From Escherichia phage 121Q, in sequence record NC_025447.1: a stretch of 64,000 nt of DNA; one strand, written 5' to 3'. This document shows positions 53,713 through 64,000 of the stretch, in pieces. The notes under the pieces were generated by a model. It worked only from the letters and a program-made list of their open reading frames with translations, made no database searches and was not told where the DNA came from. Each line of letters begins with the position of its first letter. Positions within the stretch are counted from its first letter, which is position 1. The translations under genes were made by a program, and so were the position numbers.

Positions 53713-54017
53713 AAAAATTATTAGTTCCAATGATTTCTTTTTTAATTATAAGTGGGTGTGCCGAGCAAGTAAAACTACAATCCCCCGCACCAATTAAACA
53801 AGAAATTCTGTTAGAAAGATGTGATGATGATACACCTCTACCACAAAAAATTATGATTGACAAAAATGGTTTTAAAGGTTATGATGGTGCAGAAATTCTT
53901 AAAGTACTTACTCGTTGGGATGCAGTCTACAATGAATGTGCTTTAAAACACGACGCATTGATTAAAACTATTCGTGATTTACAAGGTAAAGATATTAAAA
54001 TCAATATCAAGGAATAA
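53709..54017 (+). CDS. putative o-spanin lipoprotein (Rz1-like)
   Basis: signal peptide with lipobox LIISGC. Confidence 0.45.
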   Translation: MKKLLVPMISFLIISGCAEQVKLQSPAPIKQEILLERCDDDTPLPQKIMIDKNGFKGYDGAEILKVLTRWDAVYNECALKHDALIKTIRDLQGKDIKINIKE

Positions 54018-54018
54018 A

Positions 54019-54630
54019 ATGAACAAATATCATGTTTACTATACGACAAAATTATCACTTCTTGAAGAATTAAATCAACGAAGTACTAAGATGAAACGCT
54101 ACACTTTAAATGGTATTACTTTTCGATATTTCCCACAAAAAGTTCTTACTTTTGTTAAGAATCCAAAATGCGTGGCATGTGGGATTGAAGCTACTGAAGT
54201 ACGCATTGAACGTTCATTATGTTCTGATCCAGTATATGGTAAACCACATTTAAATGTATATGCTGTATGTGGTCTTTATGAAGTTTTAATGACAGTTGAC
54301 CATAATCATCTGGCATCTAAGGGTGGACCTGATTTAGAGTCAAACTTTAATACTATGTGCTCCAGATGTAATCAACTACGTTCGAATAAAACTGAAACAG
54401 TTGATGAGTTTCTTGAGAAAGTTAAAGGTCGTAATCTTCTCCAAGAACATATGAATAATTTCTTTAATGTACAAAAAAAGAAAAATAACATTGACAAGTC
54501 GAAACTACTAGAAGAACGTAGGTTACGTCAAGAATTATGGGAAACTGATCATCTATGGCATGTTCGAGAGTTTGGTCGTCATATGAAAGCTTTGAAAAAA
54601 GAACAGAAGAAATTGAATAAACATGATTGA
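54019..54630 (+). mobile_element. HNH homing endonuclease gene
   Basis: Cys pair CVAC, HNH core VDHNHLASKGG...N...CSRCN. Confidence 0.6.
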
Positions 54631-56588: not shown

Positions 56589-57029
56589 ATGGAAGATATT
56601 AATGATTTACGACACGTAATGGACTTTATCGGAAGTACTGAAGAAGATAATTCATATGATGAAGTACTATTAACTTTTATTGAAAATAGTTTGTTTTTAA
56701 GTTCTGCTGCACATAACTGGCACTTACAATGTCATTTTTATACAAAGCATTTACAATTAGATGAACTATATAAAGAATTACCAGAATATGTAGACGCATT
56801 TGTTGAAGGTATCATGAATAATCGTGGTGCTTTGCAAGTTGGGACTGGTAATAGTTATCGTTTTACACCAATTGAAGATTGTGTACCAATTCTTGAAGAA
56901 TATGTTGAGCAATGCAGAGCAATTCATGATATGCTTGAAGAATCGGGTGATTACGGCAGTGTAAACACATTAGAAGATATTATGAGTTTTGTTGAAGGAA
57001 CACTTTACAAACTTAAAGTTTTACAATAA
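56589..57029 (+). CDS. hypothetical protein, possibly ferritin/Dps-like four-helix bundle
   Basis: AAHNWHLQCHF..H..LDELY loosely resembles the Dps AHWN...F...H..LD motif; weak. Confidence 0.3.
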   Translation: MEDINDLRHVMDFIGSTEEDNSYDEVLLTFIENSLFLSSAAHNWHLQCHFYTKHLQLDELYKELPEYVDAFVEGIMNNRGALQVGTGNSYRFTPIEDCVPILEEYVEQCRAIHDMLEESGDYGSVNTLEDIMSFVEGTLYKLKVLQ

Positions 57030-60494: not shown

Positions 60495-60880
60495 GATGGA
60501 AGAAACGTCACATTAAGCGTTTTGAGAAAATAATTAAAAAATATTACTCACATAAGTTAGATCCGATGATTCTTCAGCTAAGGACCAGTATTTTTGATAG
60601 ACGTTATCCGCAGTGTTTAGAATCGTACAGTCGTAAGCGTTCCAAGAATGAATACCAGGTGTATCGTTATGATTTATCTGAATTGTTTTTGAATACTCGT
60701 GTATCAGTACCAATCAAGCTGTACTCAAGGGTAAAACGAAGTAGGGTTCAAGATATTACATATGGATATCTTATGATTGAAATCGACGACCTCAATGAAA
60801 AAACTGGCAGAAATTACAGTACTTTATGTCTGGAAAATCATGATTCAATAAAAAGAATCATAGAAGAGTTGGGAAAGTGA
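60491..60880 (+). CDS. hypothetical basic protein
   Basis: ORF in track. Confidence 0.45.
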   Translation: MRWKKRHIKRFEKIIKKYYSHKLDPMILQLRTSIFDRRYPQCLESYSRKRSKNEYQVYRYDLSELFLNTRVSVPIKLYSRVKRSRVQDITYGYLMIEIDDLNEKTGRNYSTLCLENHDSIKRIIEELGK

Positions 60881-60909
60881 GATTTTTAGTGCTATAATTG
60901 GAGATGAGT

Positions 60910-61265: not shown

Positions 61266-61397
61266 ATGAATGGACTAAAGAAATTTGGTAAAGATTTTCT
61301 AAAATGTATACGCTATACATATGATGCAAACCCAGAAATGACTGCTATTGTGGGTGTGTTTATTACACTCGTTGTATTAAGCTTTATTGTGGTGTAA
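61266..61397 (+). CDS. tiny membrane peptide (43 aa), not in ORF track
   Basis: hand-translated; C-terminal hydrophobic segment. Confidence 0.3.
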   Translation: MNGLKKFGKDFLKCIRYTYDANPEMTAIVGVFITLVVLSFIVV

Positions 61398-61400
61398 CAT

Positions 61401-61604
61401 ATGATTGAAATTAATGCTGATATCTATTGTAGTGCAGCACCAAATTACTTCATTTATGCACTAAGTACATTTGGTGAAACTGAAGGTGAAACTTTTGTTT
61501 TAGTAGAGAATACTACATGGTTCAAAACAAGTAATAAAATTCCGAAAGATGTTTTGGAAACATATGTTCGTATTGAAAATAAAAACATATATGTAATTTT
61601 ATAG
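61401..61604 (+). CDS. hypothetical small protein
   Basis: ORF in track. Confidence 0.4.
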   Translation: MIEINADIYCSAAPNYFIYALSTFGETEGETFVLVENTTWFKTSNKIPKDVLETYVRIENKNIYVIL

Positions 61605-61611
61605 GTAAAAT

Positions 61612-62022
61612 ATGATTGAAATGGAAGGAACTCTGGTGTATGATCCAGACCGTGGCACTATGAAAAAGAAGAAGGACTTCTGGTTAGTACTGCAACTTCC
61701 ATTACAGTTGGTTAGATACTACCAGTACTTCATCAGAACTGATTTACATATTGACGTTAAAGATCCTCAATGGGGAGCACATGTTAGTATAGTGCGTGGT
61801 GAAGTACCACCACATGAAGAGTTCTGGAAAAAATACGATGGAATGAAAGTAAAGATAAAGTTCAATCCTTGTATTGAGATAGTAAAAGATAAAAAGAATC
61901 CAGGTTCATTCTTTATCATTGAATTTGAAGATGATTTCATCACACACATTAGAAACGAACTAGGACTACCAACCAAGTACTTTAAATATCACATAACTGT
62001 AGGTAGAACCTACTACGATTAA
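61612..62022 (+). CDS. hypothetical protein
   Basis: ORF in track. Confidence 0.45.
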   Translation: MIEMEGTLVYDPDRGTMKKKKDFWLVLQLPLQLVRYYQYFIRTDLHIDVKDPQWGAHVSIVRGEVPPHEEFWKKYDGMKVKIKFNPCIEIVKDKKNPGSFFIIEFEDDFITHIRNELGLPTKYFKYHITVGRTYYD

Positions 62023-62190
62023 TGTGGTTTTTACAGTAAATATGTCTTGTAATAAAATAAAAATATGCTATACTACTTAAACATTTGAAAAGAACGTTTT
62101 TGTACTGTAGAAAGTCCGATGAGGCTTTTGCAAATGGCCTCTTTGCCATCTTTGTGATTGCCCATCTTAACAATCAACAAAGGAGGCGTT

Positions 62191-63117
62191 TTGAAACAAG
62201 CGAAAAAAGCACTGAAAACTAAGACTACTTATGGTGTTCTAGTTTGCACAGTACTTGTCGCTGCGATTGGATTTTATGGTTTTTCTCAAAATGATCGTGT
62301 ATCATCATCGGACGAAAGTCAGGTACACAATTTAAAACCACAAGTTACGCAAATTCAAAAGCAGGAATTACCAAAGGTAGAAATATCAAAGGATGTTCCA
62401 CGCGGCGAGAAGCATTATACGGTTCAACCTGGTGATAGTTATTATTCTATTGCTAAAAAGTTTAAACCTAAAAATGTACAACTTGAAGAGTATGTTATTT
62501 TGTTGAAAAATATCAATTTAAATGCTACTCTTCATACTTCTCAGGGTATCTTTATCCCAACAAAAGAGGATTTGAAGAACGTATTGTTACCAGATGTGAC
62601 TGTACTGTTTGATTATAATGATCCAGAAATTGTCAATCACATCAAAGAAGCTGAAGGTTCAATTGAATTTCAGTCCAAGAACAAACGCCGTTTACTTGGT
62701 GGGAAAGTCGGAGTTCCTTTCCACAATTCTAAATTTCATCCCTACAAGGACATGAAAGGTAATTATACAATAGGTTATGGGCATTATTTGGGTAGAAAAG
62801 AATCTGATGCGATTAAGTACAGAAACGGTATTACCAAAGCTCAAGCCAACAAACTTTTAATGCAAGATATGAAAAGAACATATGATGACTTTTTATTATT
62901 GATGCAGAAAAAAGAAGCAGTAAATCTGACCAAAGAACAACAACGTATTCTTTATGAAATGTCCTATACAATGGGTGTTGATAAATTAGCAACGTTTAAT
63001 AAACTTTGGAAAAGTGTGAAAAATGATAACCCTAAGAAATTTAAAAAAGAAATTATGAATTCCTTATGGTATCGTCAAGTTACAAACCGAGCAGATTTGT
63101 TGTTAAGTTCACTCTAA
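62191..63117 (+). CDS. endolysin: N-terminal membrane anchor, LysM-like segment, T4-lysozyme-family (GH24) catalytic domain; TTG start
   Basis: RBS AAAGGAGG 5 nt upstream of TTG; hydrophobic segment; LysM-like YTVQPGDSYYSIAKKF; YTIGYGHYLG resembles the T4 lysozyme core. Confidence 0.6.
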   Translation: MKQAKKALKTKTTYGVLVCTVLVAAIGFYGFSQNDRVSSSDESQVHNLKPQVTQIQKQELPKVEISKDVPRGEKHYTVQPGDSYYSIAKKFKPKNVQLEEYVILLKNINLNATLHTSQGIFIPTKEDLKNVLLPDVTVLFDYNDPEIVNHIKEAEGSIEFQSKNKRRLLGGKVGVPFHNSKFHPYKDMKGNYTIGYGHYLGRKESDAIKYRNGITKAQANKLLMQDMKRTYDDFLLLMQKKEAVNLTKEQQRILYEMSYTMGVDKLATFNKLWKSVKNDNPKKFKKEIMNSLWYRQVTNRADLLLSSL

Positions 63118-63133
63118 AAAAGGTAGGTAAATT

Positions 63134-63466
63134 ATGCTAAAATTAAATATTCAAGGTAATGTTGATTTTACTACAGCAATTCAAGATGCAATTTACGATG
63201 GTGCTAAATGTCTTGAAAAGTTCCGTACTTCAACTGTAATGGATATTGAAGTTCATGTGAAGAAAGAGCATAAGTCTCAATACTCTGTGACTCTAACATC
63301 AGGTAGTAAATCAGTTACTGCCGATGCAGCAGATTTATACAAAGCAATTGGTGATTCATTTGAAAAAATGGAAACTGTATTCAGTAAAGACAAAAGCATT
63401 AAATTACACCGCCGAAACCATCCAGAACACCCAGTTCTTGATGATTTGACAGAAAACGAAGAGTAA
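63134..63466 (+). CDS. ribosome hibernation factor homologue (HPF/RaiA family)
   Basis: colinear resemblance to E. coli HPF recalled from memory (LNI.GN.V..T.A, KLE, DLY.AI). Confidence 0.55.
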   Translation: MLKLNIQGNVDFTTAIQDAIYDGAKCLEKFRTSTVMDIEVHVKKEHKSQYSVTLTSGSKSVTADAADLYKAIGDSFEKMETVFSKDKSIKLHRRNHPEHPVLDDLTENEE

Positions 63467-63477
63467 TATATACTAAA

Positions 63478-63506
63478 GGGACAGATTAATTCTGTCCCTT
63501 TTCTTA
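63478..63506 (+). terminator. rho-independent terminator
   Basis: GGGACAG...CTGTCCC stem plus T-run. Confidence 0.65.
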
Positions 63507-63519
63507 TGGAGTTTTAATT

Positions 63520-63915
63520 ATGAATTATTCCTGGATGGAAATTGTAAAATCTATAATATCAACACATGATATGGACTTACCTGAACACCTAGTTATTAAT
63601 AGATGGTACTATCCATATCCAGATAACCGTTGTGTTGGGATTGGATTTTTTATTAATGAAAAATCTCAATATATTGGATTAATTGAAGATTATACAAAAA
63701 CCAACATTGCGTTCTCTATTGAGTTGAATGTAGATCACATAAAATACTACACTAATAAAATGGACGAAGACGATGGTGATGTTATAATTCCAGCAGAAAT
63801 AGACGAAGCTTCATTTTTTCAGTTATCATTAATTCATGATGTATCTGATATTACTTATGATAATGTGAAAGACCTTTTTATATTGTACAATAAACTGTAT
63901 AATTACTTTTTATAA
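63520..63915 (+). CDS. hypothetical protein
   Basis: RBS GGAG. Confidence 0.45.
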   Translation: MNYSWMEIVKSIISTHDMDLPEHLVINRWYYPYPDNRCVGIGFFINEKSQYIGLIEDYTKTNIAFSIELNVDHIKYYTNKMDEDDGDVIIPAEIDEASFFQLSLIHDVSDITYDNVKDLFILYNKLYNYFL

Positions 63916-63928
63916 TGGAGATAAATTT

Positions 63929-64000
63929 ATGGAATATACAATATGTATAGTTATATGTATCATATCCTTACTAGTCGGGGTTGGTGTGATGATTTATTGT
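63929..64000 (+). CDS. membrane protein, 3-prime truncated by window end
   Basis: ATG with RBS GGAG; hydrophobic N-terminus. Confidence 0.35.
   Translation, partial: MEYTICIVICIISLLVGVGVMIYC

Follow-up and report, generated by a model that had tools for sequence, protein, structure and literature searches.

A diverged HPF/RaiA-family gene follows a lysozyme gene in phage 121Q and related jumbo phages

Introduction

In E. coli, the C-terminal tail of the ribosome-associated factor RaiA (also called YfiA or protein Y) is said to prevent the formation of 100S ribosomes. Structural work compiled in a preprint (10.1101/2025.10.07.680626) indicates that this tail heads toward the site of RMF, and that HPF and RaiA contact 16S rRNA mainly through helix α2 and the β-sheet. 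In particular, the basic residues at HPF positions 80, 83, 87, 89, 91 and 93 make contacts, and the aromatic residue at position 30 stacks on A790 (preprint 10.1101/2025.10.07.680626).

Homologues of hibernation factors have been catalogued in phages since 2012–2019, none of them with a demonstrated function. Mizuno et al. 2019 (Nat Commun 10:752) listed HPF in GAP32 and in rV5-like phages (PMC6375957), an observation that Mathieu et al. 2020 repeated for the rV5-like phages. The HPF of rV5 is the sole phage HPF with a published experiment: it was present in the lysate, was absent from 70S and 100S ribosomes washed in high salt, and left 100S levels unchanged (PMC6375957). The authors pointed out that the salt wash may have stripped the protein from the ribosomes, and in their analysis the rV5 gene clusters with gammaproteobacterial HPFs and was acquired separately (PMC6375957).

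In the giant phages of the Asteriusvirus type, the gene that concerns us here is already annotated and published. The copy of phage PBECO4, which is 99% identical, appears in RefSeq as an 'HPF/RaiA family ribosome-associated protein' (NC_027364, ACQ29_gp039); the phAPEC6 copy is annotated as 'ribosome-associated inhibitor A', those of slurp01, Sharanji and vB_Ec-M-J as 'sigma 54 modulation protein / S30EA', and UniProt L7TII8 as 'Ribosomal subunit interface protein'. The Sharanji genome paper counts the HPF-like gene among the translation-related genes (PMC11895373), and the papers on phAPEC6, fEgEco12 and UE-S1 do not mention it; our literature search for jumbo phages together with hibernation promoting factor found no paper. 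As the outcome of a genome scan, the present identification is thus a correct re-identification of an annotated gene. What we add is a modest gain, namely the anatomy of the operon, synteny across the phage group, the RaiA-like layout of the tail, a partial loss of contact residues and a recombinant allele.

Results

Phage 121Q encodes a diverged member of the HPF/RaiA family

We analysed a 64,000-nt stretch of the genome of Escherichia phage 121Q (NC_025447.1; hereafter the window, to whose positions coordinates refer unless another phage is named), which has a G+C content of 33% and carries nearly every gene on the + strand. An earlier note made from the sequence had placed a 110-aa ORF at 63134–63466, had taken it for a homologue of HPF/RaiA that is colinear with HPF throughout, and had proposed an HMM search against the S30AE/HPF family. 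The ORF lies exactly where it was placed (63134..63466, + strand; ATG at 63134, stop codon at 63464–63466), and the search, when run, gave a significant match to Pfam PF02482 (Ribosomal_S30AE), with 37.4 bits (E 4.2e-9) against a gathering score of 23.7. The claim of homology is borne out by this score, by the fold and structural matches described below, by the orthologues and by the independent annotations of other phages. Colinearity extends over the core domain, in which residues 5–87 (63146..63394, + strand; the Pfam alignment range, in keeping with DSSP assignments on a structural model) correspond to profile positions 2–84 of 88 and 83 residues are covered, but not over the last ~22 residues, which fall outside the HPF profile.

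Other searches place the protein near HPF and at some distance from it. Against the PDB, phmmer returned E. coli HPF as the best match (E 8e-4), and profile–profile alignment with hhalign gave a probability of 92% at 29% identity for HPF, compared with 76% for YfiA, with the tail unaligned. Overall, it shares 24–29% identity with E. coli HPF and RaiA. PHROGs assigns the protein to a family apart (phrog_34864), which is linked weakly to the S30EA phrog. On the more specific models it scored below threshold, with 30.0 bits on TIGR00741 (the NCBIfam HPF/YfiA equivalog; cut-off 40.9) and 18.3 bits on PRK10470 (the E. coli-type HPF model; cut-off 125), and it gave no match to the RaiA-specific NCBIfam model, that is, orthology to RaiA was not recovered at the level of sequence. 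Among the orthologues that we scanned, the 121Q allele has the lowest PF02482 score (37 bits, compared with 48–62 for the others), and it is the most derived of them.

Domain architecture separates the protein from two of the three bacterial types. Pfam revealed no second domain, as would be found in the long HPF type of Firmicutes and Thermus (~180–190 aa, with a C-terminal dimerisation domain), and the protein, 110 aa long and extended past the domain by 22 conserved residues, differs from the short HPF type (~95 aa, no C-terminal extension). A single S30AE domain followed by a flexible, acid-ended tail of ~20 residues is the layout of RaiA/YfiA, a resemblance of architecture only. Because the profile HMM, the fold prediction, the structural search and the conserved orthologues agree, the assignment of the 110-codon gene to the family stands, and the evidence supports a real but diverged phage homologue of HPF/RaiA.

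The predicted fold is that of HPF, with some rRNA-contact residues replaced and a RaiA-like tail

We modelled the 110-aa protein with AlphaFold2 from an alignment of ten close homologues (pLDDT 77, pTM 0.64). By DSSP, the model has the topology β-α-β-β-β-α, with β1 at residues 2–8, α1 at 14–30, β2 at 36–46, β3 at 49–56, β4 at 59–65 and α2 at 68–94. The best 38 Foldseek matches in the PDB were all HPF, RaiA/YfiA/pY or chloroplast PSRP1, many of them solved on ribosomes, and the model superimposes on E. coli HPF from a 100S structure (6h4n_x) with a TM-score of 0.82 (normalised to HPF) and an rmsd of 1.9 Å. The weaker matches at ranks 39–49 include dsRBD proteins.

We mapped the rRNA contacts onto the phage protein by alignment, using the contact list of preprint 10.1101/2025.10.07.680626. 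Retained are K78, K85 and K87 (HPF K80, K87 and K89), F30 (Y30) and K29 (position 29), and basic residues have been gained at R93/R94. Replaced in Asteriusvirus are R83 of HPF (T81), R17 (Q), K26 (C), K91 (I) and K93 (L). Three of the basic residues, K29, K87 and R94, are invariant throughout the wider jumbo-phage clade. Judged from the alignment, the rRNA-contact residues of the 121Q protein thus appear to be partially eroded.

The C-terminal extension (residues 89–110, IKLHRRNHPEHPVLDDLTENEE; 63398..63463, + strand) consists of a basic stretch followed by an acidic end. In the AlphaFold2 model, residues 96–110 have pLDDT values below 50 and are predicted to be disordered. The extension is nearly invariant across Asteriusvirus, and the pattern K.L..R...(D/E)EE is retained in the orthologues of Munch-like phages and of Hallingskeid. 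When aligned with the tail of E. coli RaiA/YfiA (the RaiA sequence having been checked against the PDB) and with that of one bacterial RaiA-like protein, it matches both in length class, charge pattern and acidic end; hhalign found no sequence homology between the phage and RaiA tails.

The HPF-like gene is most likely the second cistron of a lysozyme operon

The earlier note had also described the gene as lying beside the endolysin gene, between clean terminators. Downstream, an intrinsic terminator is indeed present (63475..63506, + strand), in which an 11-bp G+C-rich hairpin (63475–63501; −17 to −18 kcal/mol, z −3.8) is followed by a T-rich tail, and in phage Munch a terminator is annotated at the equivalent place. 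Upstream, we found no terminator before the HPF-like gene: only 16 nt, in which folding revealed neither a hairpin nor any stable structure, separate its ATG from the stop codon of the preceding gene at 63117. This spacer holds the Shine–Dalgarno-like sequence AAGGTAGG (63120..63127, + strand), 6 nt 5' of the ATG. Given a gap of only 16 nt with no hairpin between the two genes, co-transcription of the HPF-like gene as second cistron is most likely.

The first cistron (62191..63117, + strand, with its start as in the PBECO4 RefSeq record) encodes a 308-aa protein with an N-terminal transmembrane segment, a LysM domain (22.4 bits in Pfam) and a GH24 Phage_lysozyme domain (44.9 bits), and is conserved in 72 jumbo-phage records. 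The neighbour is therefore a lysozyme, as the earlier note supposed, but calling it the endolysin goes further than the evidence: in the relative UE-S1, muralytic activity was assayed for another lysin, a T4-type lysozyme of 162 aa. In phAPEC6, one of two predicted lysozymes, Gp293, a possible counterpart of the protein encoded at 62191..63117, was undetected in virions by mass spectrometry. Translation of the lysozyme would begin at a conserved TTG preceded by the Shine–Dalgarno sequence AAGGAGG (62180..62186, + strand), and this combination of Shine–Dalgarno sequence and TTG or GTG start is conserved in 12 of the 13 phages compared, RaK2 alone having ATG. According to the Sharanji paper (PMC11895373), phages of this group carry a homologue of IF3, so discrimination between start codons could matter for the TTG start of the lysozyme gene.

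Ahead of the lysozyme gene lies a leader of ~110 nt. A consensus scan picked out a σ70-like promoter candidate (62047..62074, + strand; TTGTAA-16 nt-TATACT with a TG extension) that is retained in the alignment with A4 and Turkey5 (TGCTATACT / TGCTATAAT); it stands as a prediction only, in an AT-rich region in which promoter-like sites are not enriched (16 found, 15.5 expected). Within the leader, in the 5' UTR, sits a conserved hairpin (62106..62132, + strand; TGTAGAAAGTCC...GGCTTT(G)TGCA), a 27-nt element of the form TGTAGAAAGTCC-N5-GGCTTTTGCA for which RNAalifold gives a stem of 10 pairs. The element is nearly invariant in 13 phages of more than five genera, whose lysozymes share only ~50–60% identity, and in 12 jumbo-phage contigs from IMG/VR it is located just 5' of the lysozyme gene, at a distance of about 90 nt in most. 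An Rfam scan of 61500–64000 gave no match. We reject the idea that the element is a general phage promoter, since the 64-kb window holds a single copy, and likewise the idea that it is tied to HPF, since the leader or a related version occurs alongside the lysozyme gene in RaK2 (in diverged form) and in three IMG/VR contigs, all of which lack HPF. It is the lysozyme gene, and not HPF, that the element accompanies; it may act as a regulatory RNA specific to that gene or as a site of protein binding.

Just 5' of the two-gene unit, a 136-aa ORF (61612–62022, + strand) matches the Pfam 2H phosphoesterase family '2H-SAK' with 26.0 bits against a cut-off of 27, and could be an enzyme of the RNA-repair or cyclic-nucleotide phosphodiesterase type. 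A search of four local proteins with PADLOC gave no match.

The gene is conserved in position across several genera of jumbo phages

The 3-kb stretch around the HPF-like gene is 99.8% identical to that of Escherichia phage vB_EcoM_CRJP21, and 96–99% identical to those of PBECO4, phAPEC6, SHEFM2K and other ~350-kb Asteriusvirus jumbo coliphages. Beyond this level of similarity, the same gene order recurs: LysM-lysozyme, S30AE protein, a few small genes, CCA-adding enzyme, NUDIX, glutaredoxin and macro domain. We found the full order in PBECO4, Sharanji, A4, vB_Ec-M-J, Turkey5, EJP2, Hallingskeid (Erwinia), Munch (Salmonella) and GAP32 (Cronobacter), and its front part (lysozyme, S30AE and, where the available stretch reaches it, the CCA enzyme) in Xanthomonas phage XbC2, Yersinia phage fHe-Yen9-04, Serratia phage BF, Pectobacterium phage CBB and Erwinia phage Kaldavass. 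The pair formed by lysozyme and HPF is accordingly kept in Mimasvirus (GAP32, CBB), Eneladusvirus, the Munch-like phages, Kaldavass and Asteriusvirus. Several of the surrounding genes concern translation or RNA, namely those for the CCA-adding enzyme, the NUDIX protein and the macro domain and, in Hallingskeid, an RNA ligase. All of the positional orthologues that we scanned (GAP32, Munch, Hallingskeid and EJP2) are positive for PF02482, with 48–62 bits. At the lysozyme-adjacent position, an HPF gene is absent from RaK2 and from three of the six IMG/VR contigs that extend far enough downstream to show it.

Elsewhere in the compared stretches, two HNH genes are inserted in GAP32 (1252–1865 of its compared stretch), where they split the lysozyme/HPF-like pair, and the window itself contains an HNH endonuclease ORF at 53974–54630 (+ strand). 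A 146-aa ORF of the window (56589–57029, + strand) matches DUF5856 strongly (99.8 bits) and also shows a weak signal of the ferritin-like type.

Relative to Asteriusvirus phages, the dN/dS of the HPF-like gene is 0.14–0.27, with dS up to 0.7, and resembles that of neighbouring genes; the protein is under purifying selection. Since it is so selected, and since it holds a fixed position in several jumbo-phage genera, we infer that the phage benefits from the gene in some way. When 1.84 billion representative proteins were searched exhaustively with HMMER, just 38 passed E 1e-3, and beyond the protein's own cluster the next real relatives, at about E 1e-9, are proteins of Munch-type jumbo phages. 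A 1605-aa protein from outside the window (P0011), which reached E 3e-37 with the family profile, is no relative: its score is summed over ~29 weak 53-aa tandem repeats, and it looks like a translated concatemer. Pattern scans of IMG/VR, with patterns taken from one of our alignments (A1), found no relatives. The protein is far from any cellular HPF and was not captured recently from the host; the gene is old and has been kept vertically within the jumbo-phage group.

The 121Q allele has been imported by recombination

In comparison with Sharanji-type phages, the domain-coding part of the gene forms a sharply bounded patch. Sliding identity over 63134..63400 (+ strand; positions 3634–3900 of the compared Sharanji stretch) is 76–87% at the nucleotide level, the flanks are 98–100% identical, and the tail-coding end is identical. 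Consistent with this, dS against the Sharanji-type phages is 0.58 for the HPF-like gene, 0.005 for the lysozyme gene and 0.014 for the downstream gene. Fast or diversifying evolution of the patch can be rejected, because dS is raised as much as dN (dN/dS 0.14), and the patch is instead an allele imported by recombination. The identical tail-coding 3' end probably served as a crossover site. Further mosaic patches, at 60500–60900 and 61300–61400, show 80–91% identity to PBECO4 or Sharanji within sequence that is otherwise ~99% identical; patchy recombination is common in the region round the HPF-like gene.

Four records of Salmonella phages (SD-15_S21, SD-2_S15, SD-1_S14 and SD-6_S16) are missing 108–179 nt within the HPF-like gene, with end points that vary from record to record. 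The gaps coincide exactly with the divergent patch, two of the four records also miss pieces of the lysozyme gene, and all four genomes are 20–40 kb shorter than those of relatives and carry more, fragmented CDSs. We therefore reject real recurrent deletions and regard the gaps as probable assembly dropouts at divergent regions.

Discussion

The explanation that we favour as a whole, and to which we assign a probability of roughly 55%, is that a diverged, vertically inherited member of the HPF/RaiA family, made from the second cistron of a lysozyme operon, silences 70S ribosomes in the manner of RaiA. By analogy, the phage protein would use helix α2 and the sheet to bind vacant host 30S or 70S ribosomes at the decoding centre, in the channel for tRNA and mRNA, and would thereby silence idle ribosomes and protect them from nucleases. 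The earlier note's suggestion that a phage copy could shut down or protect the ribosomes of the host, for instance late in infection or during starvation, is speculative. Because its acid-ended tail of ~22 residues resembles that of RaiA/YfiA, unlike short HPF, the ribosomes would be expected to be held as 70S monomers, with the tail pointing toward the RMF site, and the formation of 100S dimers would not be promoted. The retained contacts, the RaiA-like tail, the translation- and RNA-related neighbours, the synteny, the dN/dS values, the fold and the profile matches all speak for such RaiA-like action on vacant ribosomes. Against it stand the lost contact positions, the weakest Pfam score among the orthologues, the scores below the equivalog cut-offs and a tail without sequence homology to RaiA, and the main counter-evidence is the ribosome result for rV5, whose HPF belongs to a different lineage. 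Binding to ribosomes, a RaiA-like outcome and a benefit to the phage are accordingly what we infer, where family membership, fold, selection, operon anatomy and conservation between genera are supported directly.

Two other readings keep the fold and change what it does, and we think each of them unlikely. The protein might compete weakly and reversibly with host HPF, RMF or RaiA, thereby averting a 100S shutdown imposed by the host, for example during starvation or a dormancy-type defence, and freeing ribosomes for phage mRNAs. Mizuno et al. proposed such a role for viral HPF and bL31 (PMC6375957); a tail of the RaiA type should collide with RMF, the loss of several basic contacts fits weaker, reversible binding, and RMF is induced downstream of the dormancy-inducing defence DRT2 in phage infection (PMC11100668). 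An occupant of the A and P sites would nevertheless block phage translation as well unless displaced, and the HPF of rV5 had no visible effect on 100S ribosomes (PMC6375957). That same protein was found in the lysate and not in ribosome fractions (PMC6375957), as might be expected if the phage lineage had kept the HPF fold, which resembles dsRNA-binding domains, and turned it from the ribosome to another RNA or protein target. The absence of equivalents of Arg83, Arg17 and Lys26, the isolation of the family (with its next relative at E 1e-9 in 1.84 billion representatives) and the dsRBD proteins at Foldseek ranks 39–49 point the same way. Yet the core α2 lysines and the position-30 aromatic are kept, some contact residues being invariant between genera, every strong structural match is a ribosome-bound factor, and less diverged orthologues reach 54–62 bits on the family profile.

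That the gene is what remains of a captured host gene, in decay and without function, is very improbable. The low profile score and the gaps inside the gene in the four Salmonella-phage records might suggest it, but a dN/dS of 0.14–0.27 at dS values of up to 0.7 and intact same-position orthologues in several genera lead us to reject it, and the gaps, which sit on the divergent patch and have counterparts in the lysozyme gene in two of the records, have the look of an assembly artefact. Still more remote is the reading of the protein as a small flavin-binding protein of the dodecin type. Residues 12–55 match Pfam Dodecin (PF07311) with 21.9 bits, and there are weak NCBIfam dodecin matches; the Pfam score is below the cut-off of 22.5 and takes in only a β-α-β-β sub-motif, compared with the 83 residues that the HPF profile covers. 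Dodecins stack flavin on a Trp, of which the 110-aa sequence has none, and no dodecin was among the best 50 structural matches in the PDB, so that we reject this reading too.

Going further than RaiA-like silencing, the protein may have evolved in phages into a 'ribosome guardian', in which a RaiA-like body caps the decoding centre and the tail blocks RMF, preserving usable ribosomes, with the allele swap as an adaptation to host or defence. We hold this to be quite doubtful. If true, it would mean that the protein is deployed with the lysozyme operon against dimerisation or rRNA cleavage imposed by the host in starvation- or defence-triggered dormancy. Learning whether host ribosomes are silenced, protected or 'un-hibernated' by such a protein would reveal how giant phages manage host translation, and the answer would bear on ribosome hibernation as a possible barrier to phages.

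Comparison with known systems

Among jumbo-phage factors that act on host ribosomes, gp014 of PhiKZ is reported to do so immediately after infection (PMC11895373); it is an unrelated protein, without a homologue in Asteriusvirus according to the Sharanji paper (PMC11895373). The closest counterpart by position is gp183 of GAP32 (GAP32_183), which follows the same LysM-lysozyme and precedes the CCA enzyme, NUDIX and glutaredoxin genes. It is positive for PF02482 and has the same fold as the 121Q protein (TM 0.82), whereas identity between the two is about 24% and a pairwise BLAST match is barely significant.

Of the solved structures, the short HPF of E. coli (YhbH, 95 aa; PDB 6h4n and 4v8h) is the closest in sequence and very close in fold. 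Its K80, K87 and K89 and the aromatic at position 30 have equivalents in the phage protein (K78, K85, K87 and F30), but it ends at residue 95, and the phage protein runs ~15–20 residues further.

In this respect the better parallel is E. coli RaiA/YfiA/protein Y (113 aa; PDB 4v8i and 1n3g), which, like the phage protein, is a single S30AE domain of the same fold with a flexible extension of ~20 residues that ends acidic, and which has a similar overall charge. The two differ in that core identity is only ~24–26% and the tails cannot be aligned, in that the phage protein is without equivalents of Arg83 and Arg17, and in that its gene belongs to a virus and is predicted to be co-transcribed with that of a lysozyme. 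What the phage protein is predicted to share with RaiA in function is a silencing that stabilises 70S ribosomes and would be incompatible with RMF.
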